Positions 3,687 through 60,715 of a stretch of DNA of 64,000 nt are shown here, in pieces. Under the pieces are notes generated by a model. It was not told the DNA's origin. It was given only the letters and a program-made list of their open reading frames with translations, and searched no databases. The DNA comes from an uncultured Candidatus Saccharibacteria bacterium (GTDB lineage Bacteria > Patescibacteriota > Minisyncoccia > UBA6257 > 2-01-FULL-56-20): the NCBI GenBank assembly GCA_964360585.1, contig CAYHXC010000006.1, forward strand, positions 8,256-72,255, read 5' to 3'. Position 1 is the first letter of the stretch. Each line of letters begins with the position of its first letter. A program made the position numbers and the translations under genes.

Positions 3687-3760
3687 CGCCTGTCATTGCG
3701 AGGGAGTAGAAGCGACCGTGGCAATCTAGATTGCTTCGTCATACTCGCAATGACAGGCGG
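3687..3760. repeat. REP-like extragenic palindrome, family GTCATTGCGAG...GTGGCAATCT (R1)
   Basis: ccgcctGTCATTGCGAGggagtagaagcgaccgtgGCAATCTAGATTGCttcgtcataCTCGCAATGACaggcgg. Perfect outer arms and an inner GCAATCTAGATTGC palindrome. Confidence 0.85.
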
Positions 3761-3812
3761 ATATGCCCCTTATCCACGGCCTAACGGCCGTGGTTTTGGC
3801 ATGGAACTTTGG

Positions 3813-3847
3813 CATATAAAAAACGAATGGATTTTGTCCATTCGTTT
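3813..3847 (-). terminator. rho-independent terminator of gene 3855..4349
   Basis: Perfect 11-bp stem AAACGAATGGA/TCCATTCGTTT with a 5-nt loop, followed on the minus strand by TTTTTTATAT. Confidence 0.65.
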
Positions 3848-3854
3848 GAAATTG

Positions 3855-4349
3855 TCAGGGCGGGAGGGGAACGCCTCGTCGGCGGTACTCGGCATAGTAC
3901 ACCTCGCTCACGGCGTCACCTCCGTCAAAGGGGAGCGCTTTCAGCCGGCGATCGAGATCGGCAATTGGCAACTTGGCCAGTTCTTTGGCCAGAGCTTCGA
4001 GATCGGGATCATTGATCGGAATGATGTCCCGTTTCTCGAGGATGTGCGAAGAACCGATTGGGATAAATCCAAGCTTATATTCGGGACCGGAAAGAACCGT
4101 AATTCTTCCTGATGTGTCGGGTATTTCCCCGACCACCGAGAGGGGGAGTACAAAGGCTCGAGTTTTCTTCTCGAACCATAAGTCTCGATCCGTGTCGTAC
4201 CACGCCAACCAAGAGAACTCTACCTTGAGAATTCCTCCGTCAAACGCAATCGAAGCTACCTCTCCTTGGAATTCGGCCACCTTTGGGTTTTTCGTCATGG
4301 CGAACTGTCCGCCAATAAACCGCTGGAGAAACTCATTTGAGAAGATCAT
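3855..4349 (-). CDS. hypothetical protein
   Basis: GGAGGTGG RBS precedes the second ATG (MIFSNEF...). Terminator downstream. Confidence 0.5.
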   Translation of the reverse strand: MIFSNEFLQRFIGGQFAMTKNPKVAEFQGEVASIAFDGGILKVEFSWLAWYDTDRDLWFEKKTRAFVLPLSVVGEIPDTSGRITVLSGPEYKLGFIPIGSSHILEKRDIIPINDPDLEALAKELAKLPIADLDRRLKALPFDGGDAVSEVYYAEYRRRGVPLPP

Positions 4350-4430
4350 GCCACCTCCATGGCTCAAAAGACTATCTCACTTATATGTCTGAAATGGGCT
4401 TCGGTCAATCTAATGTTATTTTCATGAAAG

Positions 4431-4799
4431 ATGAGGTACACTAACGATATGAAAAAATATTTAGTACTGTATCTCATGCTAGCGGCGGGTTTGGCGGAGT
4501 GGGCGAAGAAACCAGCCGAGGAGCGGAAAGCGGCCGAAGATAAGATGCAGAAGGAGTGGCAGGAGTGGGCCGGGAAGCACAAAGATATGATCAAGGAAAC
4601 TGCTGGCGCCGGCGCGACGCAGAAGGTGACGAATGAGGGCGTTTCTCAGATTAAAAACGATGTGATGATGTATTCGATGGTGGAAGCCGAATCGCCGGAA
4701 GTTGTGGCTAAAGCTTTTGAGCACCATCCGCATCTCGGTATTCCCGGCGCCTGGATTGAGATCATGCCCGCGAATGTCTTGCCGGGTATGTCTTCTTGA
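4431..4799 (+). CDS. hypothetical protein with an N-terminal hydrophobic segment
   Basis: ORF track. MKKYLVLYLMLAAGLA is signal-like. Confidence 0.4.
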   Translation: MRYTNDMKKYLVLYLMLAAGLAEWAKKPAEERKAAEDKMQKEWQEWAGKHKDMIKETAGAGATQKVTNEGVSQIKNDVMMYSMVEAESPEVVAKAFEHHPHLGIPGAWIEIMPANVLPGMSS

Positions 4800-4815
4800 T
4801 TTGTGCGTTAACGCA

Positions 4816-4843
4816 TTGACAAAAACAAGAAATTGTGCATAAT
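4816..4843 (+). promoter_or_regulatory. sigma70-like promoter TTGACA-N16-CATAAT
   Basis: Consensus -35 and a good -10 upstream of gene 4905..5321. Confidence 0.5.
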
Positions 4844-4904
4844 AGTGATTAGAACACCAACTTGTAGTCCGGTACAAACCCGGGAGAAAACGGAGGCAGG
4901 TCAC

Positions 4905-5474: not shown

Positions 5475-7037
5475 ATGTCTGACTCTCATAGATTCAATCT
5501 CGCGACCATGAAAGGCAATAAGCCCTGGGCGGAAGCCGTGGCTGACGCGGTTATTGCGCAACATCCAAACGAAGAGATGTATACGGTGGCGGCGGGGATT
5601 AGTCCATCGGGTGTCGTTCACTTCGGCAACTTTCGGGACATTATGACCGCGCATATGGTCCGCGAAACATTGCAGGCGAAAGGCAAAAAAGCGCGACTCA
5701 TTTTCTCTTGGGACAATTTTGATCGTATGCGCAAAGTGCCGGCGGGCGTGCCGGAGTCCTTTTCAGAACATATAGGAAAACCGCTTTCTAAAGTGCCGGA
5801 TCCTTTCGGCGCGGTAGCTTCCTACGCCGAACATTTCCAGCAGCCGTTTGTCGAGGCCATGAAAAAGTTAGGCATAGAGATTGAGTATCGCAATCAGACG
5901 GAACTTTACGAAAGCGGTGTCTATGACGAAAAGATTAAACTCGCATTGCAACACCGAGAAGAAATCGCCGATGTGCTCCTCTCTTTTATGACCGAGAAAG
6001 CGATGACGGCGAAGGGGATTGATGCCGCCGAGTACCGCAAGAATTTCTATCCGATTTCCATCTACTCGCGATTTACCGGAAAAGATTCAACCAAGATTGT
6101 GTCATATGATGGCGATATGGGAGTGACCTACTACTGCGCCGAGACGAAGAAAAAAGATACGGTGGATTTACGTGAACATCACATTGCCAAATTGAATTGG
6201 AAGATGGACTGGCCAATGCGCTGGCAGTATGAGAATGTTCACTTTGAGCCGGGAGGGAGCGATCACGCCGCGCCTGGGAGCAGTTACGACGTTTCTACCG
6301 TAGTGGCAAAAAAAATCTTTCACATCGAACCGCCGATCTTTGTTGAGTATATGTTTGTGGGCATTCGGGGATTAGGAGCGAAGATGTCCGGTTCAAAAGG
6401 AAATGCGGTTTCGCCACTCGATCTCCTGGATATTTATGATCCGAAATTACTCTTGTGGTTGTACGAACGGAAAGACCCGAACCAGTCATTTGAACTGGCT
6501 TTTGATTCTGAAATTTACCGGCAATACGATGAGTACGATCGTGAACACGAAATTAATCAGGCCGTTTCTTTCCGGCAGTTGGTGGGTTTTGGTCAGATCG
6601 TTCAGTGGCAGGAGGATAAGCTCACGACCATCCTCGATCAACTTACATTGGATTACGATAAAAATGTAATTAGAGAGAGGCTGCCTTTGGCGAAAAGTTG
6701 GCTAGAGAAATACAACGCCGACGAGGCGGTCACTTTACGGAGCGAATCAAATCGAGAGTATATCGAAACACTAAACGAGAAGCAGAAGGCGCTTATTGCG
6801 CGTTTGCATGATGAACTTGCGACCAAACCGGAGGCCAGTATTACTGATCTCGAATTTCTGACCTACCAGATTCCCAAGGATCCGAATGTAGATGAAGCCA
6901 CACTCAAAAAAGAACAGCGGCAGTTTTTCAAAGACGTTTATAATTTGCTGATTGGAAAAGATACCGGACCGAGACTGGGAACGTTTCTCTGGGCTGCTGA
7001 TCGAAAAAAAGTGCTTGAACTCCTGAGCATTGATTAA
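5475..7037 (+). CDS. lysK: lysyl-tRNA synthetase, class I (archaeal type)
   Basis: HIGH-like VHFGNFRD and KMSKS-like KMSGSKGN class I motifs. About 520 aa, which fits class I LysRS. GGGGGA RBS. Confidence 0.8.
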   Translation: MSDSHRFNLATMKGNKPWAEAVADAVIAQHPNEEMYTVAAGISPSGVVHFGNFRDIMTAHMVRETLQAKGKKARLIFSWDNFDRMRKVPAGVPESFSEHIGKPLSKVPDPFGAVASYAEHFQQPFVEAMKKLGIEIEYRNQTELYESGVYDEKIKLALQHREEIADVLLSFMTEKAMTAKGIDAAEYRKNFYPISIYSRFTGKDSTKIVSYDGDMGVTYYCAETKKKDTVDLREHHIAKLNWKMDWPMRWQYENVHFEPGGSDHAAPGSSYDVSTVVAKKIFHIEPPIFVEYMFVGIRGLGAKMSGSKGNAVSPLDLLDIYDPKLLLWLYERKDPNQSFELAFDSEIYRQYDEYDREHEINQAVSFRQLVGFGQIVQWQEDKLTTILDQLTLDYDKNVIRERLPLAKSWLEKYNADEAVTLRSESNREYIETLNEKQKALIARLHDELATKPEASITDLEFLTYQIPKDPNVDEATLKKEQRQFFKDVYNLLIGKDTGPRLGTFLWAADRKKVLELLSID

Positions 7038-7075: not shown

Positions 7076-9145
7076 ATGATGGCAGATATTCCTCCCAAGG
7101 CTCAACGCATGACTGATGTTCGTCCGCCCGAGGCTTCACCGGGCGAAGGCCAGTTGCCAGCTGTTCTTGTTGATCAAAAGCCACAAAAAGAAGTTACTGC
7201 CGAACTTCGCGCGGCGCGAGCGCCCCGAAAAAAACTCAAGCCGCAGTTTCGTTACGCCGTGCATATCTTGATTGTTCTTGTTATTACACTTATCGTTGGG
7301 TTTGGCGTGATGCGGTTCAGTTTTTTAAGCGAGCAGATTTCACGGGCGATTGCCTCGGTTCGCATGATCGCGAAGCAGGGAATGCCGATTGCCAGTTTGC
7401 CGCAAACTGGTTCAGTGGTCTCGAAGGATACTCCCAGTCAGTTTACCTCGCTTCCAACCTCTACCTCGTTCACATCGCTTTTGCGTGGCGCCAGTCTTTC
7501 CGATATCTGGACGGTTTTTGCGCATGGCGGTGAGGCGCTTGGTCGTTTCCAAAAAACAGTTACCGACTATCAGGCCTTAAATACGGAAGTTGATGCTTTC
7601 TTGAATCAAGTTCCCGGTATTTTCCTTTCCAGCCACAAGGAGGGGCCGCTCCCATCATTACGGCGCATTCAGACAAATGTCCGGACGTTCCAGGCGCACA
7701 ATTCTGACCTTTCAACCTCGCTCACGTCGGTCAAGGATGCTTTGCCAATTGATTTTGGCGAGTACTTGGCCATGGGAAAGAGTTTGGATCGCATGTCAGA
7801 TTTTCTCGCGGCAAGCGTGCGATGGCTTGAGAAGCCGCATCATCTCGTCCTCGGATTCCAGAACTCTTCAGAGATGCGGCCATCCGGCGGATTTTTTGGC
7901 AGTTACGCCGAACTTAAAATGGCGAGCGGGACGATCTATGATCTCCAGGTTCACGACGTGACCGAAGCGGACAAAGTTTTTTCGGAGTCCATCGTGCCGC
8001 CCCAACCGCTTCAGTTCGTGACCAAAAACTGGCGCACGGCTGACGCCAACTGGTATTTTGATTTTCCCCACTCGGCTTCGCAAACTTTGGCCTTTTTAAA
8101 AAAATCCAATCTATATGCCTCGAGTACGCCGTTTGACGGATTTATCGCTGTCTCACCCCGGGTGCTTGAGGATGTTTTAAAAATTACCGGATCGATCGAG
8201 CTCAAGGATAGAAACATAACCTTGACCGCCGATAATTTCTTGCGTGAGATTCAGGGAGAGGTGGTTGCCAGTCGGGCGGATTCCGCCACCGCCCCAAAAA
8301 GTATTTTAGGCGAGATTGTTTCGGCGCTCGAGACGAGATTTATAAAACTGCCACCCGAGGATCGATCGGAACTTGCCGGACTTTTTCTTGATTGGGTGCG
8401 GTACAAGGACATCCAGGTTTTTATGACTGATCCTGAATTGCAGTCGCTCGCCCGTTACTTTGGCGCTGATGGCGGTGTGGTTTCAGGCTCGGCCGCACTG
8501 AACACTGAATACTTGGCGCTCGTTGATAGCACAATTGGCGGCGAGAAAACTAATTTGGTTCTCGATCGGACAATTACTTTCCGGGCGCAGATTGAGTCCG
8601 ACGGCAGTGTTCGTCACGAACTGAATATCGTCCGGAAGCATACAGGTGACAAAGAAAAAGAGCGCTGGTACCGCGTTCCGAACAAAACATACTTCCGCGC
8701 ACTCATCACCCCCGGCAGTGCCGTAACTGGCGCGAGTGGTTTTACCGAACGAACTTCGCCGGGACGATCGTATACCAAAGATTACGTTCGTGATTCAGGT
8801 CTGGTGGTCTACGAATCCACAATGAAAAATGTACTTGGCATTCCGTCCATCAAATTGTTTGAAGAGTCAGAGAAGATGAGTGTGGCCGGTTGGATCATAA
8901 CCGAGGTGGGAAAACAAAATAAAATGACGCTGACCTACGATTACCAACTACCGGAGAAACCGGACAACGGGGTGCCGTATCGTTTTGTTTTTGAAAAACA
9001 GGCCGGCACGGAAGGGGATTATAGTTTCGAAATTGACGCGCCGGTCGGCTATCATTTTAAGGAAAACCAACTGCCGATTTTTGAGTACAAGACGGAAGAC
9101 ATTCCAGGGAGGGTGGTGATGGATCTGACATTAGAAAAAATATAA
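7076..9145 (+). CDS. large hypothetical protein with a single N-terminal TM anchor
   Basis: 689 aa ORF with the TM segment HILIVLVITLIVGFGVM near the N-terminus. Family not recognised; a DUF4012-like assignment is possible but unverified. Confidence 0.6.
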   Translation: MMADIPPKAQRMTDVRPPEASPGEGQLPAVLVDQKPQKEVTAELRAARAPRKKLKPQFRYAVHILIVLVITLIVGFGVMRFSFLSEQISRAIASVRMIAKQGMPIASLPQTGSVVSKDTPSQFTSLPTSTSFTSLLRGASLSDIWTVFAHGGEALGRFQKTVTDYQALNTEVDAFLNQVPGIFLSSHKEGPLPSLRRIQTNVRTFQAHNSDLSTSLTSVKDALPIDFGEYLAMGKSLDRMSDFLAASVRWLEKPHHLVLGFQNSSEMRPSGGFFGSYAELKMASGTIYDLQVHDVTEADKVFSESIVPPQPLQFVTKNWRTADANWYFDFPHSASQTLAFLKKSNLYASSTPFDGFIAVSPRVLEDVLKITGSIELKDRNITLTADNFLREIQGEVVASRADSATAPKSILGEIVSALETRFIKLPPEDRSELAGLFLDWVRYKDIQVFMTDPELQSLARYFGADGGVVSGSAALNTEYLALVDSTIGGEKTNLVLDRTITFRAQIESDGSVRHELNIVRKHTGDKEKERWYRVPNKTYFRALITPGSAVTGASGFTERTSPGRSYTKDYVRDSGLVVYESTMKNVLGIPSIKLFEESEKMSVAGWIITEVGKQNKMTLTYDYQLPEKPDNGVPYRFVFEKQAGTEGDYSFEIDAPVGYHFKENQLPIFEYKTEDIPGRVVMDLTLEKI

Positions 9146-9984: not shown

Positions 9985-11811
9985 ATGGATCGTATTCGGA
10001 ACTTCGTCATTATTGCCCATATCGATAGCGGAAAGTCGACCCTCGCGGATCGGCTTTTAGAGGAGACAAAAACTGTGGAGACGCGGTTGATGAAACCACA
10101 GTATTTAGATCAGTTGTCTCTGGAGCGCGAGCGGGGGATTACGATCAAGATGGCGCCGGTGCGGATGGTCTATCGACCATCGCACGGGGCAAAGGGCATG
10201 GAGCATAGCGCCGAGCACTTAGCGCCAAGCGCCTTGCCAAGTTCAGAATTTATTCTGAACTTGATTGACACTCCTGGCCACTCGGATTTCTCGTATGAAG
10301 TCTCGCGTGCTTTAACGGCTGTCGAAGGCGCCTTGCTTCTGGTTGATATTACCAAAGGTATCCAGGCGCAGACCCTGGCGAACTTTCGATTTGCAAAAAA
10401 CTTGGGATTAAAAATTATCGGCGCGGTGAACAAGATTGATATGCCCTCACCGAATGCGGAAAAGATTATCTCGCTTCTCGCTAAATTAATTGATCAGGAG
10501 CCGGAAGATATTATTCGTCTCTCCGCCAAAACAGGACAGGGCGTTTCTGATGTTTTGAAAAAAATTGTTGAACAGGTGCCGCCACCAAAAACTTCGGGAG
10601 AAAATCTCCAAGGTTTAATCTTCGATTCTTTGTATGACGATCACAAGGGAATTGTCGCTTTCGTGCGTATTATGGGAGGAAAAGTGAAAGCCGGAGATAA
10701 GATCGCCTTGGGCGCGCTTGGTAAGACATTTGAAGTAAAAGAAGTCGGCCATTTCAGCCCGAAACTTACCCCCGGGAAAGAATTGTCGGCTGGGGAGATT
10801 GGCTATGTGGCGACGGGATTGAAGGAACCGGCACTAGTGAATATCGGAGACACAATTATTACTCCAGGTTCCGGCACGCCGCCCCTTCGGGGCTACCGTG
10901 AGCCACGGCCGGTTGTATTTGTTTCTTTTTATCCACAGAACGCCACTTCCTTCGAGGATTTGCGAGCCGCTTTAGGGAAATTACGCTTGAACGACGCCGC
11001 TTTAAATTACGAACCGGAATCCAACGAACTTTTGGGACGGGGATTTAAAGTTGGTTTTTTGGGTCAGCTTCATTTCGAGATTACGGCCAGCCGCCTGAAA
11101 GACGAGTTCGGCGCTGATTTTTCAACCAGTTTGCCTTCGGTGGCGTATCGGGTTGTCGAGCGTGGTGTGGAGAAGGTTATTAAACAAGCGGCCGAGTTTC
11201 CAGAAAATCCGGACAAGGTCTTTCAGCCAATCATTCAGCTGGATGTGGTTACCCCGCCGGAGTATTTAAATGGTGTTCTGGGACTGACCAAGACCTACGA
11301 CTTTGATATTTTGGAAACCAAAAACTTTGGTGATGATCTTTTGCTCGTCGGCAAGATGCCCTTGGCCGAGTTGATGCGCGGTTTTGATAACACGATTAAA
11401 TCAGTCACGGCCGGGTACGCTTCGTTTTCGTATGAGTTGATCGAAGAAGAGCCAGCTGACGTGCAAAAACTGGAAATTCTCGTAAACGAAGAAAGCATTC
11501 CCGCACTTTCTCGCATTGTGCCTCGTAAAGATGCCGAGCGAGAGGGTCGCGAAATGGTGGATCGCTTGAAGGATCTTTTGCCGAAACAGCAGTTCAAACA
11601 ACCGATTCAGGCTAAGGTCTTGGGCCGAATTATTGCTCGGGAAACAATTCCAGCCATAAAAAAGAAATTGGGCGACTTTGGCAAAAACGGCGGCGACATT
11701 ACGCGCAAGATGAAACTCTGGAAAAAACAGAAACGCGGTAAGGAAAAATTGCAGGAGCTGGGGAAAGTTACAATCAGTCCAGAGGTTATACGCGAGATTT
11801 TGAAGAAGTAG
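9985..11811 (+). CDS. lepA: translation elongation factor 4 (LepA)
   Basis: IRNFVIIAHIDSGKSTLADRLLE, DTPGH, NKID and the LepA-specific C-terminus ...KKQKRGKEKLQELG. It carries a ~20-aa insertion before DTPGH. Confidence 0.92.
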   Translation: MDRIRNFVIIAHIDSGKSTLADRLLEETKTVETRLMKPQYLDQLSLERERGITIKMAPVRMVYRPSHGAKGMEHSAEHLAPSALPSSEFILNLIDTPGHSDFSYEVSRALTAVEGALLLVDITKGIQAQTLANFRFAKNLGLKIIGAVNKIDMPSPNAEKIISLLAKLIDQEPEDIIRLSAKTGQGVSDVLKKIVEQVPPPKTSGENLQGLIFDSLYDDHKGIVAFVRIMGGKVKAGDKIALGALGKTFEVKEVGHFSPKLTPGKELSAGEIGYVATGLKEPALVNIGDTIITPGSGTPPLRGYREPRPVVFVSFYPQNATSFEDLRAALGKLRLNDAALNYEPESNELLGRGFKVGFLGQLHFEITASRLKDEFGADFSTSLPSVAYRVVERGVEKVIKQAAEFPENPDKVFQPIIQLDVVTPPEYLNGVLGLTKTYDFDILETKNFGDDLLLVGKMPLAELMRGFDNTIKSVTAGYASFSYELIEEEPADVQKLEILVNEESIPALSRIVPRKDAEREGREMVDRLKDLLPKQQFKQPIQAKVLGRIIARETIPAIKKKLGDFGKNGGDITRKMKLWKKQKRGKEKLQELGKVTISPEVIREILKK

Positions 11812-11814
11812 AGT

Positions 11815-11883
11815 CTTGTCATTGCGAGTGAAACGAAGCAATCTAGATTGCCACAGTCGCTACGCTCCTTCGCAATGACAACG
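11815..11883. repeat. REP-like palindrome (R2)
   Basis: tGTCATTGCGAGtgaaacgaaGCAATCTAGATTGCcacagtcgctacgctccttCGCAATGACA. Confidence 0.85.
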
Positions 11884-13492: not shown

Positions 13493-13612
13493 CCCTCACC
13501 CAATAAGCAAAGTATGCGAGAGTAGTACAATGGCAGTACACTTGCTTCCCAAGCAAGAAACGCGGGTCCGATTCCCGTCTCTCGCTCCAAGGTTGCTTAT
13601 TAGGTGAGGGGC
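13491..13612. repeat. 20-bp inverted repeat pair flanking the tRNA (GCCCCTCACCCAATAAGCAA / TTGCTTATTAGGTGAGGGGC)
   Basis: The arms at 13491-13510 and 13593-13612 are reverse complements with 1 mismatch. Confidence 0.8.
13516..13589 (+). tRNA. tRNA-Gly (anticodon CCC)
   Basis: Manual fold: acceptor GCGAGAG/CTCTCGC, D-arm GTAC-AATGGCA-GTAC, anticodon stem CTTGC/GCAAG with loop TTCCCAA, T-arm ...GGGTCCGATTCCC..., discriminator T, CCA encoded. Confidence 0.85.
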
Positions 13613-13715
13613 AAGCTAAGGATGCGGTCCGACTTGTGGTGAGTTTATCGAACCATTCCGCTCACCCGCTCCAGTTTTGTAGAAAAAGATACAGAGTATT
13701 TTGCTTGGTTCTGCC

Positions 13716-13814
13716 TTGAACGAGCAGGCGGCGAGGCTTCGCGTGCGGCTCGCGGGTAAAAGATTTCCTCTCCCCCCACCCCCTCGTTCACTTTTCCCAC
13801 TCATCAGTCCGGCC
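13716..13814. repeat. 98-bp inverted repeat, left copy (IR-L)
   Basis: Reverse complement of 16296-16393 at about 97% identity; it differs by a C-tract length and one substitution. Confidence 0.9.
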
Positions 13815-13949
13815 CACGTGGATATGGGTGCAATGGCGGCGCGTCTCACAGAAGAATACTCTGCGCCTTTAAGATTTTAGCGCTTAGCTTGCCAACTTTT
13901 GGTTTTTAGCTATGCACTTTAGATATTTATATTGTACAATAGAACAGTA

Positions 13950-15401
13950 ATGTCAAAAATAGAAAAGAAGGGAACGTTTCGCCTCGTGGTTTTTTTGGTT
14001 GCTATTGTATTCGCATTTACAATTTCGGTTGCAGTTGCCTCGCTTACATTTACCACCACGAATGTCACAAGCGACTCGACGCTCACCATTGACAGCGAAG
14101 GAGCACTCACAATTGGCAACGCCACTGCCACCACCGTCACCGTGGGAAGAAGTGGTTTTACGGTTTCGTTTCCGGGAAATGTCTCGACCACGAACTTCAC
14201 GGCCACAAACGTCTCGACGACCAATCTGACCGCCTCGGGGTATGGTCTGTTTACAACCTTGAACTTTACCAATACTTCGGGAACCAATATCACCGTTTCC
14301 GGATATGGAACCTTCCCGACCCTTAACTTTACCACGTCGACGGGCACTTCTTTCACGGTCACGAACGCTACCGCGACCACACTGCGTTTTACCAATGCCT
14401 CTGGTACAAGCCTTACACTTTCAAACGCCTTGGACATTTCTTCAGGAGGACTAGGAACGAGTACTGCCCCATCAGCCAGTGTGGTTCTTGTCGGCGACGG
14501 TACGAATTATCAATTTTCAACGATACCCAACTGTGCGACTGGTTCAACGGACAAGCTACTCTACACCAGTTCTACCCGAACCTTTACCTGTGGTAGCGAC
14601 CAAACGGGTGTAGGAGGAACAGAGTCCGGCTGGAGAACCAATAGTCCCTTCGTGTATCTTGCGACCTCAACTGATATTGTCGGCATCGGCGCAACTTCTA
14701 CGGGCGTGAAGTTCTCAATTCAAGGTACAAGCGTGGCTTCTACCACGCTTCTTATTCAAGGAATGGCGGCGCAAACCGGGGATCTTCTGCGCGTTGCTTC
14801 TTCTGGCGGTCAAATCTACTGGCAGATATCCTCTTTGGGCGTTGCGTCGTCGTCTGAACTTATTGTTAATTCCTCGACTATTGCGAGGCTTGCCTTTACC
14901 AATGCCACGAGCACCGGCAACCTCCAAGCGTCAACAATTAATATTACTGGAGTCTCAACGCTCCAAGGATTCACCTTTACGAACGCCACAGGAACAACTA
15001 TGAATACCTCGGGTAATGGCACTTTTGGTTCAATCACAACGACCGGCCAATCATCTTTGGTCTCGGTTTCCTCTACCAATTTGAGCGCTTCTTCGTCGCT
15101 TATTATCGGTTATGGTGCTCCGATTCTAAAACATATTTCGGTGACTTCCTCGCTTGATATCGCCAGTGTTTCAGCGTCAACATGTGTTAACACCACAAGC
15201 ACCGTAACTGGTGCGGCAACCGGAGATACGGTACTTGCGACACCAACCCCCGTAGCAAGCGGCATCGAGACTCTGGCGCTTTCGTGGAATGCATGGATTT
15301 CAGCCGCAAATACAGTTACGCTCCGAGCATGTAATATTATGACCATCACTTCCCAGGATCCTGCAGCGGAAACCTGGCGCTTCGATGTTTGGCAACATTA
15401 G
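13950..15401 (+). CDS. Thr/Ser/Asn-rich repeat surface protein (beta-helix/fibre-like) with an N-terminal membrane anchor
   Basis: Internal ~21-aa repeats (GYGLFTTLNFTNTSGTNITVS / GYGTFPTLNFTTSTGTSFTVT / ...TLRFTNASGTSLTLS), many NxT motifs, N-terminal hydrophobic segment. Confidence 0.6.
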   Translation: MSKIEKKGTFRLVVFLVAIVFAFTISVAVASLTFTTTNVTSDSTLTIDSEGALTIGNATATTVTVGRSGFTVSFPGNVSTTNFTATNVSTTNLTASGYGLFTTLNFTNTSGTNITVSGYGTFPTLNFTTSTGTSFTVTNATATTLRFTNASGTSLTLSNALDISSGGLGTSTAPSASVVLVGDGTNYQFSTIPNCATGSTDKLLYTSSTRTFTCGSDQTGVGGTESGWRTNSPFVYLATSTDIVGIGATSTGVKFSIQGTSVASTTLLIQGMAAQTGDLLRVASSGGQIYWQISSLGVASSSELIVNSSTIARLAFTNATSTGNLQASTINITGVSTLQGFTFTNATGTTMNTSGNGTFGSITTTGQSSLVSVSSTNLSASSSLIIGYGAPILKHISVTSSLDIASVSASTCVNTTSTVTGAATGDTVLATPTPVASGIETLALSWNAWISAANTVTLRACNIMTITSQDPAAETWRFDVWQH

Positions 15402-16295: not shown

Positions 16296-16393
16296 GGCCG
16301 GACTGATGAGTGGGAAAAGTGAACGAGGGGGTGGGGAGAGAGGAAATCTTTTACCCACGAGCCGCACGCGAAGCCTCGCCGCCTGCTCGTTCA
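16296..16393. repeat. 98-bp inverted repeat, right copy (IR-R)
   Basis: Begins 3 nt after the stop of gene 15385..16293; partner of IR-L. Confidence 0.9.
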
Positions 16394-25809: not shown

Positions 25810-25862
25810 ATATTTAGTCCAGTTCATTGATAAAACCCGCATATTTCTTTATATTGAGGTTT

Positions 25863-47469: not shown

Positions 47470-49209
47470 GTGGTACGATTAAGAGGTAGCGCTCTTCCGA
47501 ACCTCAAAATGATCACTGGAATTACTGATATCGCCCTTCTTTTTGGCCTGGCTGCCGGTTTGAGCATCCTTGCCCACATCTTGCGCCAGCCGATTGTCCT
47601 GGCCTATCTCGCGACCGGCGCGGTAATCGGCGCCTTTCATTTTTTGGACGTGGGGAGCCAGCATAGTCTCGATCTCTTTTCCGACCTGGGAATCATGCTG
47701 TTGCTTTTCCTGGTTGGTTTGGAAATCAACTATGCCTCCATCCGCCATGTTGGCAAGGCACCGATCGTGATCGGGATATGCCAGCTTTTCCTTACCTCTC
47801 TTTCCGGTTTCCTGATTGCCTTGGCCCTTCGCCTGCCCGTCGTCTCGGCCGCCTATGTGGCGATTGCCATGACCTTTTCGAGTACGGTGATTGTGGTCAA
47901 ACTCCTTTCCGAGAAAAAAGACTTAAACAGTCTTTACGGAAAGATCAGTGTCGGATTTCTTCTGGTTCAGGACTGTGTGGCCGTTCTACTCCTAGTCGCG
48001 CTTTCCAGTTTTGAGCGTGGCGCTAGTTCCGATATCGTTTCACAGATTGCGAGCACACTTTTAGTCGGCATCGCTCTTTTTACCGGCATGTTTTACTTGG
48101 GGCGAAAAATTCTCCCGACCGTCTTCGATCTTTTTGCCCGATCGCAAGAACTGCTTTTCCTGGCCACGCTGGCTTGGCTTTTTGGGGTGGCGGCGCTGGT
48201 CAGTCGGCTTGGTTTTTCGGTAGAGATTGGCGGACTCCTGGCCGGACTGTCGCTCGCCAACACTTCTGAACGTCTTCAGATTGCTCACCGCATCCGGCCG
48301 CTTCGGGATTTCTTCATTCTCATCTTTTTTGCCATTTTGGGCTCAATGATCGCGGTCTCGAACTACTCGGGACTCTTTCTGCCGATTTTTATTTTTTCCT
48401 TGCTCATTCTTATCGGGAATCCGCTGATCATTCTTATCATTATGGGACTCATGGGCTTTCGACGCCGGACCAGTTTTATGGCGGGCGTGACCGTGGGGCA
48501 GATCTCCGAGTTCGGTTTGATTTTAGTGGCGCTTGGCATGAAGATTGGTCATGTAGGGGAAACCGAAGTGGCGCTCGTGACCGCCGTGGCGGTGGTCACG
48601 ATCACGCTTTCGAACTATCTCATTCTGCACGCGGAAAAGATCTTTACCCATCTCGACCCTTACTTGCGGTATTTTGAGCGTAAAAAAAATACCGAACATC
48701 CCATCCCTCGCAAACGGTTTAAAAAATCAGTGATCTTGATTGGCGCCCACCGTACGGGGCAAAGTATTGCCTGGCACATTCCCAAGTCCGAGCTGGTGAT
48801 CGTTGATTTCGATCCGGAAGTCATTGAGCGGCTGAAACGACAAGGTTCAGATTATGTTTTTGGCGATATTGCTGACGAGGAGGTGCAAAGCGCCATCGAT
48901 TTTTCTGCCGCCCGCATTATCATCTCGACCAGTCCGTCGCTCGACGACAATCTGATCACCCTCCGCCTCTTCCGCGAGATGAAGAAAAAGGAGAAGTACC
49001 GTTTTTCTCTCGTCGTTCGGGCCAAGAATGAAAAAGAAGTGGAACTGCTCTATGCCGCCGGCGCGGATTATGTTCTTTTGCCGCACTTTACCGCCGGCGA
49101 GTATTTGGGACAGATGGTCTCGCGGAAAAAACGGTTTGATTTTTTGAAGAAGTTTAAAGAAAAAGATTTACGAATGATGAAAAAAGAACATTCTTTGATG
49201 AGGGTGTAG
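47470..49209 (+). CDS. CPA2 monovalent cation:proton antiporter with a C-terminal RCK/TrkA-N domain (Kef-type)
   Basis: About 380-aa Na+/H+ exchanger core (12-13 TM), then VILIGAHRTGQSIAWHI...VIVDFDPE (a Rossmann GxGxxG variant). Confidence 0.85.
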   Translation: MVRLRGSALPNLKMITGITDIALLFGLAAGLSILAHILRQPIVLAYLATGAVIGAFHFLDVGSQHSLDLFSDLGIMLLLFLVGLEINYASIRHVGKAPIVIGICQLFLTSLSGFLIALALRLPVVSAAYVAIAMTFSSTVIVVKLLSEKKDLNSLYGKISVGFLLVQDCVAVLLLVALSSFERGASSDIVSQIASTLLVGIALFTGMFYLGRKILPTVFDLFARSQELLFLATLAWLFGVAALVSRLGFSVEIGGLLAGLSLANTSERLQIAHRIRPLRDFFILIFFAILGSMIAVSNYSGLFLPIFIFSLLILIGNPLIILIIMGLMGFRRRTSFMAGVTVGQISEFGLILVALGMKIGHVGETEVALVTAVAVVTITLSNYLILHAEKIFTHLDPYLRYFERKKNTEHPIPRKRFKKSVILIGAHRTGQSIAWHIPKSELVIVDFDPEVIERLKRQGSDYVFGDIADEEVQSAIDFSAARIIISTSPSLDDNLITLRLFREMKKKEKYRFSLVVRAKNEKEVELLYAAGADYVLLPHFTAGEYLGQMVSRKKRFDFLKKFKEKDLRMMKKEHSLMRV

Positions 49210-49232
49210 GGGTTAGGGTCTAGGGTCTAGGG
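49209..49232 (+). repeat. G-quadruplex-forming, telomere-like motif GGGGTTAGGGTCTAGGGTCTAGGG
   Basis: Four G3+ tracts with 3-4 nt loops immediately after the stop codon. Confidence 0.6.
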
Positions 49233-49243
49233 TACGTTATTCA

Positions 49244-49441
49244 TTGCTTGTCATTACGCCTTGCCCGGCCAGGGAGGAGCGTAGCGACTCGCCTCGCTGT
49301 AATTTTGGCGAAGCGGGCGTGGCAATCTGATCACAATAATGTTTGTATAATGTCATGGCGAGGAGCTTCAATCGAAACGACGCGGCCATCTCATACACTC
49401 TCTCCTTCGCCCCAAGAGCTTCGGGCAGGCCGCAATGACAC
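49244..49441. repeat. composite REP-like element (R5), ~195 bp with nested GTCATT(A/G)CG...GTGGCAATCT units and outer inverted arms
   Basis: ttgcttGTCATTACGccttgcccggcc...ggcgaagcgggcgtGGCAATCTgatcac...tGTCATGGCGAGgagcttcaatcgaaacgacgcgg...ggcaggcCGCAATGACAc. Confidence 0.75.
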
Positions 49442-56756: not shown

Positions 56757-56806
56757 GCTACACTCTTCTAACTCACGATCGTGAGTTAGAAGAGTGTAGC
56801 TTTTAA
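56757..56806 (+). terminator. terminator hairpin GCTACACTCTTCTAACTCACgatcGTGAGTTAGAAGAGTGTAGC followed by TTTTAAG
   Basis: Perfect 20-bp stem. Its core CTCTTCT.A.TCACGATCG is shared with the palindrome at 43888. Confidence 0.75.
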
Positions 56807-58120: not shown

Positions 58121-58350
58121 TCATCAGCCGACACACACCAGTGTCGGCTTTTTTTTATTTTCCCCCACATTCATTGACCTTAAATATGAAGAAGAGTATA
58201 AAAGGTTTATATGTGCACTATTAATTTTTGGTCCATACTTCTGAATATCGTCACTGTTATCGCTTTATTGGTTTTAGTTTTCGTGGCTATCCCGCGACGG
58301 ATTGGTAAGCGGAAGAAATAAAAAACCTCGTCGAGTAAAGACTCGCGAGG

Positions 58351-58677
58351 TTACTTGTGGTCTTTTGGACAGACCTGGTGGCGTGGCAGTTTGATGCCGG
58401 TGATCTTGTGATTCGCGCAGGCCTCGAGAAAGGCTATGCGGGCGGTTTTTTCTACAGCACGTGCCAGTGCTGCCGGGGTAATGAGATACTGTTGCATCTG
58501 TTCCTCGGACGCGATCTGGGTGGCTTCAATAGGAGTCCCGGAATTGCACAACGGGAGATCGAAGCCGACGGGCGGTTTTACCAGTTGTCCATTCTGCTGA
58601 ACGGAGAATTCATGCAACTCGTTACTTTTCGCGCTGCCCCCCGAGTTGCGCACGATGTAAAGCATCAGTCCAAACAT
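58351..58677 (-). CDS. hypothetical protein
   Basis: On the minus strand: TTGACT-N17-TAGAAT promoter, AAGGAGGAGGG RBS, ATG (MFGLML...). Confidence 0.5.
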   Translation of the reverse strand: MFGLMLYIVRNSGGSAKSNELHEFSVQQNGQLVKPPVGFDLPLCNSGTPIEATQIASEEQMQQYLITPAALARAVEKTARIAFLEACANHKITGIKLPRHQVCPKDHK

Positions 58678-58968
58678 ACCTACACCCTCCTCCTTGTGTT
58701 CTAAAAATATTCTAAATCTCAATTTCCTATAAAGTCAATGTGCGCGATGTAATGCCATTGACACTCGTGAGGCGGAGTGTACACTTAAAATGTAATGACT
58801 TCACTCATGAGTACCGCCATCTCGCTCCTGTCCGCACTGCTTCTTGGACTTCTTTTGCTTACTCTTACCCATCGGCGAGGAGGTTATCTGAAATATTAAG
58901 AAAAAATAATCAGAAAGAACAAAACCTCCCGCCGCGGAGGTTTTTTGCTTGTAGCTTGAAGATTTTTT

Positions 58969-59610
58969 ATGAAGTTCGTAAGAAATCTTCAGGCCATAAT
59001 GTCTGGCCAGCTATTTGAAATAACCCATAGTGTCTTGGAGAAAGGGAGCGGTGGTATGGTGGAATCATTGGTATCACGATGCAGTTCGGGCGTTAGGCTG
59101 ACAACCGGAGTTTATCATAGGGAGATGGTCAGTTTGGCTCTCGGTAAAGCGGTGGAAGCGGAATTTCGTCGAGGCGTGTGGAAAGGGCACATTCGGGTGG
59201 TAGAGGAAGATGGTTTGCGTCTTGTCGGGGATCTCTCTGACCGGCGCGTGGCCATCAATTTCTATACTAATGGCGTGGGGGTGAATGATCTGTCTAATCC
59301 GCCACACCAAGAGGTGCTCGCACTGATCAATCGAATTCTCTATGCCTTAACGGAGTCGGAGCTGTGTGTCGGAGATCCGGAGCGTTCTCTCCTCACCTTC
59401 GGAAAAGGAGCCCTACTGGACCTGGGTCCAGAGGAAAGATTCCGAGCCATCTGCTTGGTCTATCTGGCCATCTGGAAACAGACCCGATCACGAGTGGCCA
59501 GAACAGTTCTCGAACAGCTGATCCGGATCTATCCCGAAGCGGCCTCCCTCAGAAGATTGCCGCTTGCAAGGGTCAAAGCGCTTTACGAAGCAGCTTCATT
59601 CTGCGAATAA
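58969..59610 (+). CDS. hypothetical protein
   Basis: ORF track. GC-richer. Confidence 0.4.
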   Translation: MKFVRNLQAIMSGQLFEITHSVLEKGSGGMVESLVSRCSSGVRLTTGVYHREMVSLALGKAVEAEFRRGVWKGHIRVVEEDGLRLVGDLSDRRVAINFYTNGVGVNDLSNPPHQEVLALINRILYALTESELCVGDPERSLLTFGKGALLDLGPEERFRAICLVYLAIWKQTRSRVARTVLEQLIRIYPEAASLRRLPLARVKALYEAASFCE

Positions 59611-59685
59611 CACATTCGCAGATTTTTATTTGACAGCCGAATATGAGTTCACTACTATCAAATCGCAATCATATAATTTGGTTCT

Positions 59686-60306
59686 TTGAAAATAGAGTGG
59701 GGAGAGTGGGTAATGAAGAGGCCAATGTTCGAGTCTGATCAAGAAAAGAATTTTCGAGCCTGGGTCCGTTTTTGGGTTTTTCACAACCATGGCACAAGCG
59801 AGGAGTTTGAACCTCTGGTGCCGATCGTCGCGAAAAATCCGATTGATGAACCACCGTATCTCGTGATTCCTCCAAGGCCACCAGTGATTGATTGGGAAAA
59901 TCTCATGTGGTCTGTCCGAATGGGTAATGGACCGGGGCTGGCCGCAGAGAACATGAAAAGCCCGAATGTGGTTAGTGACCAGGTTCAGATTCCGACGAAA
60001 CCCTACCTGATGAGGGGATTTAAGAAGGGGGGTGAGTGCTCCGGACTCACATCTGAGGAATCCCAGGAAAAACTGCGAAGAGCGCATAAGTTGGGATTGA
60101 CCGCTTTCGAGTTTGTGGTGTGCGCTATGCTCGTATCATTTTTTCAAGAGTATTCGGGCATTATCTCTTCCGAGTCACGGGTTAATGGCCACTTGTTCCC
60201 GGCCATCTATCTCCTTGGAGAGACACCGATGCTGCGCGGGCTACCTGACGGATCAGAACTACTCCCATTCGCGGTTCCGTATTGCGAGGAACGCATTTCA
60301 TACTAG
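59686..60306 (+). CDS. hypothetical protein
   Basis: ORF track. GC-richer. Confidence 0.4.
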   Translation: MKIEWGEWVMKRPMFESDQEKNFRAWVRFWVFHNHGTSEEFEPLVPIVAKNPIDEPPYLVIPPRPPVIDWENLMWSVRMGNGPGLAAENMKSPNVVSDQVQIPTKPYLMRGFKKGGECSGLTSEESQEKLRRAHKLGLTAFEFVVCAMLVSFFQEYSGIISSESRVNGHLFPAIYLLGETPMLRGLPDGSELLPFAVPYCEERISY

Positions 60307-60404
60307 GCCAACTACTTCGGTAGGAGGCCTTTTTTATTTCTCAAAATAGGGGAGTCGCTATGCTATAATGAAGGTACTAGGACTCTAAAGGTCGAGTTTT
60401 CCTC

Positions 60405-60626
60405 TTGTATACTATGAAAGCATTACACATGGTTGCGTTCACCCTTCTTGCAGTCGGAGGGCTGAACTGGTTGGCTTTGGCTCTGACTGGTTGGGATATT
60501 AGCCAGTTGTTTGGCGGACCAGAAACCACCATTGCGAAGGCGATCTATATCTTGGTCGGCCTCTCGGCGATTTCGGAGTTGGCGACCCACAAGCAGAACT
60601 GTCGCCGGTGCACTATGCCGGCGTAG
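60405..60626 (+). CDS. DUF378 family small membrane protein
   Basis: MKALHMVAFTLLAVGGLNWLALALTGWDISQLFGG matches the DUF378 N-terminus (…IGGLNWGL…). Confidence 0.7.
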   Translation: MYTMKALHMVAFTLLAVGGLNWLALALTGWDISQLFGGPETTIAKAIYILVGLSAISELATHKQNCRRCTMPA

Positions 60627-60647
60627 TAGGTTTTTAAGAATACAGTA

Positions 60648-60715
60648 TGTCATTGCGAGCTCCACAAGGAGCGTGGCAATCTAAAGAGAAACGGCGTGAG
60701 GCCGTTTTTCTTTTT
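60648..60715. repeat. REP-like half element (R6) fused to a terminator hairpin
   Basis: tGTCATTGCGAGctccacaaggagcgtgGCAATCTaaagagAAACGGCgtgagGCCGTTTttcttttt. Confidence 0.8.

Follow-up and report, generated by a model that had tools for sequence, protein, structure and literature searches.

The 64-kb window, by which we mean the whole stretch of DNA analysed, comes from a tiny groundwater Patescibacteria genome and carries at six sites (R1–R6; Table 1) ten clean half-units of a repeat plus decayed remnants, the chance expectation being 0.24. The 11-nt core GTCATTGCGAG (≤1 mismatch) occurs 10 times versus 1.1 times expected, a count reached by 0 of 100 shuffles, and the half-unit pattern (GTCATTGCGAG with ≤1 mismatch, 3–60 nt, then a GCAATC-like sequence) has 10 matches versus 0.24 in shuffles. 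An nhmmer profile made from half-units of other genomes finds in the window the R1–R6 sites only. The shuffle counts and the profile thus confirm the six-copy palindrome family recognized in an initial annotation of this DNA, which had the sites right and the exact starts wrong by 0–5 nt.

All six sites are intergenic, as annotated, and none lies between divergent genes. For example, the stop codon of lepA is found 5 nt before the start of R2, which like R4 is flanked by convergent genes. In other genomes the genes flanking the repeat are convergent in 28, tandem in 49 and divergent in 10 cases (background 92/263/94), which is an enrichment between convergent and a depletion between divergent genes; the median distance from a gene 3′ end is 34 nt. 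The proposed association with gene ends is therefore found outside the window, too. With respect to local GC skew no orientation bias was detected (p = 0.48, small sample).

Table 1. Positions of the repeat copies and of neighbouring features in the window
Feature	Positions	Strand or orientation	Sequence or remark	Basis
R1, full dimer	3691–3755			motif, half-unit pattern, nhmmer
R1, left (long) half-unit	3691–3727		TGTC-ATTGC-GA-GGGAGTAGAAGCGACC-GTG-GCAAT-CT	
R1, right (short) half-unit	3728–3755	minus		
R2, full dimer	11817–11880	opposite to R1		motif, half-unit pattern
R2, short half-unit	11817–11844			
R2, long half-unit	11845–11880			
R3, full dimer	25744–25809			motif, half-unit pattern
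R3, left half	25744–25778		canonical distal part GAGCGAAGCGAC	
R3, right half	25779–25809		compensated basal stem ATCGC...GCGAT	
Promoter-like site	25827–25855		just downstream of R3, followed by alaS	
ORF convergent with release-factor gene	27871–28218		flanks R4	
R4, full dimer	28299–28384			motif, half-unit pattern, fold
R4, left half	28299–28332			
R4, central spacer	28333–28349		17 nt, A+T-rich	
R4, right half	28350–28384		distal hairpin CTC-CGCAGA-GAG	
Release-factor gene	28423–29199		flanks R4	
R5, whole site	49249–49440			
R5, unit A (decayed, expanded)	49249–49328	+	TGTCATTaCG ... GAGGAGCGTAGCGAC ... GTGGCAATCT	
R5, unit A, weak partial profile matches	49274–49288, 49317–49328			nhmmer
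R5, unit B (decayed dimer)	49351–49440			motif, half-unit pattern, nhmmer
R5, unit B, left half	49351–49392		doubly compensated basal stem ATGGC...GCCAT	
R5, unit B, right end	49432–49440		keeps only GCAATGACA	
R6, solitary half-unit	60648–60683	+	TGTC-ATTGC-GA-GCTCC-ACAA-GGAGC-GTG-GCAAT-CTA	motif, half-unit pattern, nhmmer
Intrinsic-terminator-like hairpin + T-run	60689–60715	+	AAACGGC-GTGAG-GCCGTTT	read by eye

Dimers, half-units and decayed copies

A dimer of 65–86 nt consists of two half-units that meet at their tails and carry the tags on the outside; in 61 of 86 cases it is asymmetric (one long and one short half). In R1 the halves abut without a spacer at the junction CTAG. R2 and the reverse complement of R1 share 88% identity across the whole dimer, and because this similarity breaks off exactly at the TGTC...GACA tags, the copied unit is the dimer. 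Folded as single-stranded DNA, R1 reaches −16.5 kcal/mol (z −4.7); the values for R3 are −21.3 kcal/mol and z −4.1. The inner palindrome GCAATCTAGATTGC, previously taken as the canonical centre, holds for R1 and R2 only, R3 having GCAATCTCGAGATCGC instead. Similarly, the 17-bp insertion ascribed to R4 is one relative to R1–R3, but a spacer of 17–22 nt (median) is the norm in the family as a whole, so that R1–R3 are rather the short-spacer forms.

The composite R5 does contain two units. They are not nested, however, but decayed and in tandem, unit A with ~45 nt of extra internal sequence, and shuffles fold as well as either of them (z −0.7 for A and −0.06 for B). R6 is indeed a half-unit, which folded alone gives −8.1 kcal/mol (z −3.0); the terminator-like hairpin adjoining it, which is missing from the list of a consensus terminator scan, is separate and lies outside the repeat.

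The half-unit reads (C/T)GTC tag, ATTGC, GA, a variable mini-hairpin, G-N-R, GCAAT and a C(T/C)N tail. It is the functional module and forms on a single strand a hairpin made up of the unpaired 5′ tag, a basal stem of 5 bp (ATTGC/GCAAT), an asymmetric internal loop that is conserved and has GA opposite G-N-R, a distal stem-loop in which the pairing is kept and the sequence is free, and the short 3′ tail. In 249 parsed units GTC is preceded by C (167) or T (65), GAG is present in 235, the 3′ strand of the loop is GAA (193), GTG (31) or GCG (23), and the tail is CCA (150), CTC (39), CTT (18) or CTA (14). Among the distal parts GC-GNA-GC, in which N varies freely, is the most frequent (110 units). 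The 25-nt stretch GAGGAGCGAAGCGACGTGGCAATCT, reported earlier as shared, is exact only in R3 and present in R4 with two mismatches; it corresponds to nothing more than the distal hairpin of one half-unit together with the 3′ strand of that unit's basal stem.

Covariation, and DNA versus RNA

The covariation by which the family was to be checked is strong, and it supports the half-unit hairpin over the long palindrome. ATCGC is accompanied by GCGAT in the same half in 8 cases versus 3 with an uncompensated C...A, and the C variant is present in both halves of only one of 14 dimers; the window itself has the compensated basal stems ATCGC/GCGAT and ATGGC/GCCAT. In the basal stem 98% of the cells are canonical and substitutions are few. 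The distal stems comprise 21 distinct, unrelated sequences with anchored Watson–Crick pairing of ≥4 bp (0.3 expected). In 73 units of equal length, changes on both sides were found in 50 cells versus 8.4 ± 2.5 in shuffles (reached in 0 of 500), and the covariation score was 0.205 versus 0.071, every slid control being lower. It should be noted, however, that in standard nearest-neighbour folding canonical half-units gain no stability (z +0.6 to +1.1) and the long dimer hairpin is preferred. The argument in favour of the half-unit is accordingly one from covariation and from the literature on G·A pairs and GNA loops.

This literature concerns d(GCGNAGC) mini-hairpin DNA (Hirao and co-workers; reviewed in PMC13037366), a structural motif rather than a genetic element, which is exactly the commonest distal part of the half-unit. 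There it forms part of a longer hairpin that is conserved, and Watson–Crick hairpins of the ordinary type can take its place. GNA triloops are found in 56 of the 73 units and tandem G·A/A·G pairs in 39, with G-C/C-G in their place in other units. The Tm of d(GCGAAGC) is 76.5 °C versus 39 °C for r(GCGAAAGC), and mini-hairpins of the GCGNAGC type resist SSB and are present at single-strand priming origins (PMC13037366). The dominant triloop with its tandem G·A pairs thus points to single-stranded DNA rather than RNA.

A transcribed element, with hairpins in 3′ UTRs that would shield mRNA from 3′ exonucleases, serve as marks for processing or give rise to small RNAs, is in our opinion unlikely. 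Roles of this kind have been proposed for REPs (Di Nocera, De Gregorio & Rocco 2013, BMC Genomics 14:522, PMC3733652, in its text), the copies keep close to gene 3′ ends and are underrepresented between divergent genes, and the covariation of the hairpin fits RNA as well. Yet, besides the DNA signature of C-G-closed GNA loops and tandem G·A pairs, G·T (8) is as rare a mismatch as A·C (6), so that no tolerance of G·U on one strand is apparent. Rfam has no match to the repeat, not even in Bradyrhizobium and sphingomonads, where it abounds. In addition, the dimer occurs in both orientations relative to the neighbouring genes (R1 versus R2), the repeat lacks a T-run and does not form a terminator by itself, and R3, instead of lying in a 3′ UTR, precedes a promoter-like site. 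The same findings in Rfam, in the mismatches and in the triloop speak against the small RNA that GAGGAGCGAAGCGACGTGGCAATCT had been suggested to encode.

Distribution and related repeats

Scanning one genome per species yielded at least 120 loci in at least 14 phyla including CPR. The loci listed are from Alpha-, Beta-, Gamma- and Deltaproteobacteria, Bdellovibrionota, Nitrospirota, Chloroflexota, Planctomycetota, Verrucomicrobiota, Cyanobacteria, Bacteroidota, Aminicenantes, Omnitrophota, Moduliflexus, Schekmanbacteria, Berkelbacteria and Saccharibacteria. The repeat is thus not an invention of one genome, a point missed in the initial annotation: its 11-nt core and GCAATC are nearly invariant over these phyla. 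There are taxon-specific flavours, CGTC/CCA/GAA in Alphaproteobacteria versus TGTC/CT-/GTG elsewhere. No copy was found in 5,426 E. coli genomes, nor in the alaS loci of relatives (~74 kb, AlaRS identity 76–85%), which are largely syntenic with the window; R3 is missing from their rpoD-alaS spacer and R4 from their alaS-prfB spacer.

The closest known repeats are the CGTC-tagged REPs (families CGTC-1 to CGTC-4), although the layout of stem and loop is different. As far as described in the text and supplements of PMC3733652, Neisseria dRS3 and Rickettsia RPE-4 and RPE-6 belong to them, and they are reported from 5 phyla without CPR. Like our repeat they are strongest in Alphaproteobacteria and scattered in other phyla, intergenic, downstream of genes and without a reported associated transposase. 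They share with it the unpaired 5′ tag CGTC or TGTC, a stem starting with AT(T) and ending with (A)AT, a short 3′ tail (CCA in Alphaproteobacteria) and the mostly inverted dimers with tags outward. CGTC-3, back-translated from peptides in that paper (GTCATTGCCGGGCTTGACCCGGCAATCCA), even has ATTGC...GCAAT-CCA, and a CGTC-1 dimer in one of the loci (L061) has both the tag and the CTAG junction of R1. In contrast, the CGTC-tagged REPs as described there have a continuous stem of 8–9 bp with a 4–5 nt loop, where the repeat of the window has a 5-bp stem, the GA/GNR internal loop and a free distal hairpin (2–8 bp, mostly 3-nt loops); the window copies further differ by their TGTC tags and CT- tails. 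The literal sequence of our repeat is absent from the text and supplements of PMC3733652, its consensus figure lying outside this comparison. The "Bradyrhizobium CGTC-1 with loops of different length" of the paper's text may be our repeat read as a single 8-bp stem (ATTGCGAG/CTCGCAAT).

GTAG-type REPs, REPINs and the BIMEs of E. coli resemble the repeat in having a short, imperfect hairpin at the foot of which stands a conserved 5′ tetranucleotide (there GTAG rather than (C/T)GTC), in the inverted doublet as replicating unit, in lacking a target duplication and in their location at gene 3′ ends; the long and short halves recall the Y and Z REPs of BIMEs. The REP/BIME-like reading of the initial annotation, in which palindromic units occur near gene 3′ ends as full, half or decayed copies, is supported; the cognate RAYT and the encoded small RNA proposed with it are not supported. 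None of the 51 window proteins is a transposase according to Pfam, and the only Y1 transposase (RAYT) gene in 1.9 Mb of element-bearing loci (in L067) flanks a different repeat.

REP/RAYT systems are lineage-specific, whereas the sequence of the present repeat is kept across phyla, which leaves room for a conserved host partner. A protein of the host could recognize the four ATTGC cores in double-stranded DNA or the extruded hairpins in single-stranded DNA, possibly for supercoiling or nucleoid organisation, or as a signal that excludes SSB where replication is primed or restarted on the lagging-strand template. The near-invariance of GTCATTGCGAG and GCAATC beyond what pairing alone needs, the lack of a linked transposase and the SSB-resistant mini-hairpins of priming origins would agree with such a site. 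We still regard it as rather improbable, as the distribution is patchy, with no copy in the E. coli genomes or at the syntenic loci of close relatives, copies decay (R5) and vary in number, the taxon-specific flavours look like evolving sub-families, a phage-like contig holds tandem arrays of identical units, and no orientation bias versus GC skew was detected.

Mobility and proposed mechanism

That the repeat is mobile is suggested by the similarity of copies and the patchy distribution. A classical MITE, i.e., a deletion derivative of an insertion sequence with a DDE transposase and with TGTCATTGCGAG as terminal inverted repeat, could account for the TG...CA ends and the perfect terminal inverted repeats of 11–12 nt in the dimer. 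But a target-site duplication of 2–8 nt was found in none of 124 elements, solitary half-units occur, no pair of half-units 0.3–5 kb apart encloses a transposase in the 1.9 Mb, and the covariation within halves indicates recognition of a hairpin rather than of duplex ends. This highly improbable reading is already largely refuted. Very unlikely, too, is a target or substrate of recombination, either a folded site like attC or a preferred insertion target for IS110/IS1111-type elements or filamentous phages, as reported for Neisseria dRS3. The layout is attC-like, with an outer stem that is conserved, a spacer without pairing, an inner stem and a terminal loop that varies, and the related CGTC-1 repeats are Neisseria dRS3, which are phage integration targets. 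However, the GTTRRRY/RYYYAAC core is absent, no gene recurs as a neighbour among the 120 loci listed, neither an integrase nor an IS110 gene, and the genes bracketed by two dimers are ordinary, one being a portal gene of a phage or GTA and another, in L105, acyl-CoA-ligase-like as judged from its sequence. The multiplication of the repeat itself would also be left unexplained.

We consider it fairly probable that the six sites are a non-coding REP-type repeat, a structurally distinct CGTC-tagged variant, which presumably forms a hairpin in single-stranded DNA that is handled in trans. As a genomic passenger the repeat is of an ordinary kind, and it is probably the dimer that spreads, via a trans-acting enzyme. 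The hairpin would arise in single-stranded DNA, since its commonest distal part is far stabler in DNA, and a trans-acting protein may read it together with the 5′ tetranucleotide. HUH/Y1 enzymes, by analogy with which this is proposed, handle the ends of IS200/IS605 and GTAG-type REPs, likewise without target duplication. The IS200/IS605 ends and their ORF-less derivatives (PATEs) are hairpins of single-stranded DNA next to which lies a guide tetranucleotide, and they may serve as a mechanistic model for the step in trans, although the repeat has no tnpA or tnpB nearby and its ends are one unit inverted rather than distinct left and right ends. Copies would persist where they are least harmful, downstream of genes, and effects on mRNA 3′ ends, if any, would be secondary. 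The window may present birth and death of the family, with R1/R2 as a young pair, R3 and R4 as dimers that are older and have diverged, R5 as a composite in decay and R6 as a half standing alone.

The arrangement at R6 recurs at locus L099, where a terminator-like hairpin likewise comes after a solitary half-unit.

Copies in the window and their surroundings

The repeat that the initial annotation had likened to the REP/BIME family is real, and the likening was right in kind. A half-unit of this repeat consists of a (C/T)GTC tag, a basal stem ATTGC/GCAAT, a GA/GNR internal loop, a distal hairpin and a 3' tail, and a dimer of two half-units lying tail to tail with the tags outward. The half-unit pattern search found exactly ten units in the window, all at the sites R1 to R6 (shuffles give 0.24), the conserved 5' core GTCATTGCGAG occurs ten times in the 64 kb with at most one mismatch (1.1 expected), and a profile made from the half-units of other genomes found no copy in the window beyond the six sites.

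Copies of the palindromic repeat in the window
Site	Position	Form	Setting
R1	3691-3755	full dimer, spacer absent	downstream of minus-strand ORF
R2	11817-11880	full dimer, orientation opposite to R1	between convergent genes
R3	25744-25809	full dimer	after 91-aa ORF, just upstream of promoter-like site before alaS
R4	28299-28384	full dimer, central spacer 17 nt	between convergent genes
R5	49249-49440	decayed composite	between co-directional genes
R6	60648-60683	solitary half-unit, then separate terminator-like hairpin	between co-directional genes

The dimers are clean at four sites (R1-R4). The 17 nt in the centre of R4 had been taken for an insertion; they are present, but the family has a median spacer of 17-22 nt, so that R4 conforms to the norm and the short-spacer forms are R1-R3. 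R5 is a composite as described, made however of two tandem units rather than nested ones, both decayed and folding now no better than shuffles. At R6 the half-unit and the terminator hairpin both exist, the latter being separate from the repeat. R1 matches the reverse complement of R2 at 88% identity, and their likeness ends exactly at TGTC...GACA. For the window, the element is an ordinary genomic passenger, with R1/R2 as signs of birth and R5 and R6 as signs of decay. The consequence for annotation is small: what lies at the six sites is a non-coding repeat and neither a gene nor a riboswitch nor a terminator. ORFs crossing the sites, e.g., 3630-4112, 11401-11841 and 60423-60665, are not to be trusted.

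All six sites are intergenic, as had been stated, and none of them is flanked by a divergent gene pair. In other genomes, where only crude gene calls were available, the elements lie between convergent, tandem and divergent genes in 28, 49 and 10 cases versus 92, 263 and 94 in the background, with 26 further elements inside long ORFs. By these calls they prefer the gaps between convergent genes, avoid those between divergent ones and have a median distance of 34 nt to a 3' end, which bears out the suspected association with gene ends.

The proteins encoded in the window include a class I LysRS, a DUF4012 protein and a short AlaRS, a set that points to a CPR host, and the AlaRS is 100% identical to a protein of a Patescibacteria MAG. 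Contigs from Hainich groundwater carry window proteins, and comparison of the gene order shows agreement at R2 and R6. Relatives with 76-85% AlaRS identity, among them one complete 808-kb genome (OZ246418.1), have no copy in about 74 kb around alaS, which are largely syntenic with the dnaG-rpoD-alaS-prfB region of the window; this makes R3 and R4 specific to the source lineage. The R3 and R4 spacers of these relatives contain different small ORFs and are too diverged for the boundaries of exact empty sites to be drawn. Two palindromes in the window are perfect, one of 48 nt at 25358-25405 and one of 44 nt at 56757-56800. In three relatives the rpoD-alaS interval lacks a stretch of about 480 nt comprising the first palindrome, the 91-aa ORF and R3, and R3 may thus have arrived within or beside a larger insertion. 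Copies from Bradyrhizobium were considered as orthologues for measuring selection and were discarded because their shared flanks are other repeats, which is not orthology.

The half-unit hairpin and its strand

The consensus of 249 parsed half-units reads, from 5' to 3', (C/T)GTC, ATTGC, GA, G-(variable part)-C, G(A/T/C)(A/G), GCAAT and C(C/T)N, which gives a 5-bp basal stem, a 2x3 internal loop (GA versus GNR) and a distal stem of 2-8 bp with a loop of mostly 3 nt. The base 5' of GTC is C in 167/249 and T in 65/249 units (T in 8/9 and C in 1/9 parsed units of the window). In the basal stem the first pair is A-T in 73/73 and the second T-A in 71/73 units. The commonest variable part, CGNAGC (110 units), forms together with the preceding G a GC-GNA-GC mini-hairpin in which N is free; GAGCGAAGCGAC comes second (about 45 units), and the remainder are hairpins unrelated in sequence. 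The 3' tail is CCA in 150/249 units. It begins with CC in 129/134 alphaproteobacterial units and with CT in 63/100 non-alphaproteobacterial ones and in all nine parsed units of the window (CTA, CTC, CTT). Such sub-flavours track taxonomy: CGTC, GAA and CCA characterize the Alphaproteobacteria, while in the other phyla and in the window TGTC is about as frequent as CGTC, GTG is more frequent and CT tails occur. The two halves of a dimer differ in length in 61/86 cases, 6 + 12 being the most frequent pair. Among bystander half-units (those outside the seeds), 28 were in tails-in dimers, 11 stood alone, several of them beside a degenerate partner, and one was tags-in.

Several observations indicate which structure is selected. 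The stem variant ATCGC is paired with GCGAT in the same half eight times versus three uncompensated cases, and the C variant was found in both halves of one dimer in only 1/14 cases. The window itself has compensated stems, ATCGC/GCGAT in the right half of R3 and ATGGC/GCCAT in unit B of R5. Moreover, 21 distinct and unrelated variable parts can form anchored Watson-Crick stems of at least 4 bp (shuffles 0.3). In a gap-free alignment of 73 distinct units of equal length, with the structure ....(((((..(((((...)))))...)))))..., changes on both sides of a pair fill 50 cells versus 8.4 ± 2.5 in shuffles (0/500 as high), and the covariation score is 0.205 versus 0.071, every slid control being lower. 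The initial annotation had named covariation as a check, and it was found here, in the half-unit hairpin. For pairing between the two halves past the conserved tail no covariation exceeded that of the matched control. Since covariation is found in the basal and the distal stem and since inter-half pairing has no element-specific extension, the selected module is the half-unit hairpin. The long hairpin of the whole dimer (-14 to -21 kcal/mol; z -4 to -5) may be a side effect of the inverted layout.

In the distal helix of five pairs, positions 2 and 3 are tandem G·A/A·G in 39/73 units and G-C/C-G in the others, and 56/73 units have a G-N-A loop. The purine mismatches stabilise the tagged strand only. 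Other mismatches are rare and alike in number, with eight G·T and six A·C, so that nothing points to tolerance of G·U. It is known that d(GCGAAGC) has a Tm of 76.5 °C, is resistant to nucleases and to SSB and is missed by standard models, the Tm of r(GCGAAAGC) being 39 °C (PMC13037366). The poor nearest-neighbour scores of canonical half-units are explained by this, G·A and GNA stability lying outside such models, and nearest-neighbour folding was therefore uninformative as a test.

A small RNA encoded by the shared stretch, as had been proposed, is not supported. With Rfam 15 at the gathering score, the window and 144 kb of Bradyrhizobium and sphingomonad loci yielded only tRNAs and an ffh sRNA, all of them away from the elements, and at R3 even permissive settings returned nothing above noise (E 0.8 or worse). 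Intrinsic terminators, in which a T-run follows a G+C-rich hairpin, were likewise rejected: the terminator scan lists none of the elements, the flank following the element is rich in G and A, and the terminator near R6 is a hairpin of its own. We infer that the hairpin acts in single-stranded DNA.

Distribution and relation to CGTC-tagged REPs

Scanning one genome per species with the full-dimer pattern returned at least 120 loci. The matches listed fall into at least 14 phyla, as assigned from record titles, and are dominated by Alphaproteobacteria with many Bradyrhizobium and sphingomonads. Also among the matches listed are Beta-, Gamma- and Deltaproteobacteria, Bdellovibrionota, Nitrospirota, Chloroflexota, Planctomycetota, Verrucomicrobiota, Cyanobacteria, Bacteroidota, Aminicenantes, Omnitrophota, Moduliflexus and Schekmanbacteria as well as the CPR groups Berkelbacteria and Saccharibacteria. 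Despite this spread over many phyla the family is patchy. There was no match in 5,426 genomes of E. coli, and 108 of 2.9 million IMG/VR contigs were positive. Plasmids and curated phages were rejected as vehicles, since plasmid matches came only from ten alphaproteobacterial megaplasmids and the phages gave a single weak match. The greatest density was seen on one of the IMG/VR contigs, a phage-like one with 39% G+C (L208), which has 17 half-units in 8.8 kb. Its half-units are identical and form head-to-tail arrays with a period of 41 nt (692-893, 1376-1580, 3350-3580 and 5503-5672), each capped by an inverted unit and occupying successive intergenic gaps of a block of genes on one strand.

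According to the 2013 description, CGTC-tagged REPs have an unpaired CGTC or TGTC tag (variant CCTC), a stem of 8-9 bp starting with AT, a loop of 4-5 nt and a CCA tail; they are mostly inverted dimers, come without a transposase, are intergenic, mainly between co-directional and convergent genes, and are found mainly in Alphaproteobacteria and four other phyla (Di Nocera, 2013; PMC3733652). With these our element has in common the tag, ATT(GC)...(GC)AAT with its A-T start, in part of the units the CCA tail, the layout as inverted dimers, the intergenic placement and the lack of a flanked transposase. It differs from CGTC-1 to CGTC-4 (back-translation of peptides in the supplement of PMC3733652 gives GTCATTCCCGCGAAAGCGGGAATCC for CGTC-1 and GTCATTGCCGGGCTTGACCCGGCAATCCA for CGTC-3) in its 5-bp stem, its conserved GA/GNR internal loop and its free distal hairpin, and therefore lies outside their definition by stem and loop. 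A stem of such length, the 8-bp ATTGCGAG/CTCGCAAT, arises only by taking the entire dimer for a single hairpin with a long variable loop. Neither ATTGCGAG nor its peptides are in the supplements of PMC3733652, a literature search with GTCATTGCGAG and peptides such as VIARSEATKQS retrieved unrelated primers only, and the literature searched held no later work taking the CGTC class further.

The element may overlap with the published 'Bradyrhizobium CGTC-1 with variable loops'; it is filed here as a variant of the CGTC-type kind that is outside CGTC-1 to CGTC-4 and is not REP/RAYT. Repeats of the REP/RAYT type (REPtron, REPIN) have GTAG at the 5' foot of the hairpin, where our element has (C/T)GTC instead. 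At one locus (L061) the element adjoins a CGTC-1 dimer with a TGTC tag and a CTAG junction as in R1, and at another (L111) a CGTC-3 unit. The flanks of the element at L111 and at a second Bradyrhizobium locus, L074, are mosaics of unrelated repeat families including the CGTC-3 unit CGTCATCGCCCGGCTTGACCGGGCGATCCA, which recall the mosaics of BIME, NIME and RIME.

Possible mode of spread and partner proteins

Direct repeats of 2-8 nt at both flanks were at or below chance in 124 elements, which argues against a MITE of the DDE type. Elements handled by HUH/Y1 enzymes (IS200/IS605, REP/RAYT) have a 4-nt tag at the 5' foot of a hairpin, occur as inverted doublets and make no target duplication. 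By analogy in these three features, our element might be spread by HUH/Y1-like handling.

The cognate RAYT suspected in the initial annotation is not supported. There were no transposases among the 51 window proteins scanned, and clustering of all ORFs in the 120 loci listed revealed as recurrent neighbours only generic paralogues (ABC transporters, sensor kinases, LysR, SDR). An approximate IS200 TnpA sequence, used as bait only, retrieved from 12,675 ORFs a single gene that Pfam confirmed as a genuine Y1_Tnp (PF01797; E = 3.6e-29; 7244-7717 of locus L067). On both sides this RAYT-like transposase (158 aa; locus 7130-7800) has inverted hairpin repeats that belong to it, GCATTCCGTAGGAATGC and GCATCCCGTTAGGGATGC; it is a classical REPtron of another repeat family, located 3.7 kb from a copy of our element. 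Neither the 64-kb window nor 1.9 Mb of loci contained a RAYT gene flanked by the studied repeat.

The genes enclosed by pairs of dimers are ordinary ones and not transposases. At one locus (L105) the bracketed gene is acyl-CoA-ligase-like, judged by reading its sequence. On four related IMG/VR contigs (L155, L163, L174, L206), the gene enclosed by two dimers 1.37-1.39 kb from each other reads, from its translation, as a portal gene; with a terminase-like gene on one side and a prohead-protease-like gene on the other, it reads as part of a phage or GTA-like head module. Solo half-units at distances of 0.3-5 kb yielded no coherent bracketing pairs, and the orientation of asymmetric dimers had no bias with respect to local GC skew (p = 0.48). 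Integron attC sites have an R''/R' core RYYYAAC...GTTRRRY, extrahelical bases, adjoining cassettes and an intI gene. This core is missing from the consensus of our element and there is no recurrent integrase neighbour in the 120 loci listed, and attC was rejected.

What is unusual is the family, not the window: a core of 11 nt is kept across phyla, the hairpin motifs are of the DNA type, and no enzyme is linked to them. The findings extend a poorly studied class of repeats to the CPR/Patescibacteria and at least 14 phyla, place selection on the half-unit hairpin with its DNA-type stability motifs, and sharpen the question left by the 2013 description of what copies CGTC-type repeats when no transposase travels along. 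It is conceivable, if rather improbable, that a widely conserved protein binds the DNA mini-hairpin on single-stranded DNA, be it a new mobilising enzyme or a host factor of replication or repair. In the latter case the repeat would exploit or serve the factor, e.g., as an SSB-excluding or priming-type signal. If such a protein exists, the repeat would be a ready-made handle for finding it, and a near-invariant short motif that is in thousands of genomes and missing from others is suited to phylogenetic profiling for a partner. On the same improbable reading, this would be the first REP-type repeat in which the core GTCATTGCGAG ... GCAATC and the GA/GNR loop are near-constant over most phyla including the ultra-small CPR and which has no transposase of its own.

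The window has further repetitive features. An inverted repeat of 102 nt (13713-13814 and 16296-16397; 97% complementary) begins 127 nt past a tRNA (13516-13586), and a contig of one independent assembly ends within it. Between its arms lie 13932-15401, an ORF of 489 aa without a Pfam match, and 15385-16293, an ORF with a peptidoglycan-binding domain. The whole could be an unclassified mobile element. Between 20 and 2940, where the G+C content is 42% versus about 48%, a repeat of 40-70 nt (GGGAAAACGAAAAATGATTC...) recurs in four to five copies, interspersed with two NYN-domain ORFs (999-1667 and 1786-2304). Short runs of TAGGG-type repeats (GGGTGTAGGGGTTAGGGTCTAGGGTCTAGGG) are found at 38370-38414 and at 49200-49235, the latter directly upstream of R5. 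Finally, a 705-aa protein with Ig-like He_PIG repeats is followed by a 706-aa ORF (41682-43802) that has no Pfam match and is made of highly repetitive, GAC/AAC-rich units with periods of 6, 12 and 18 nt.
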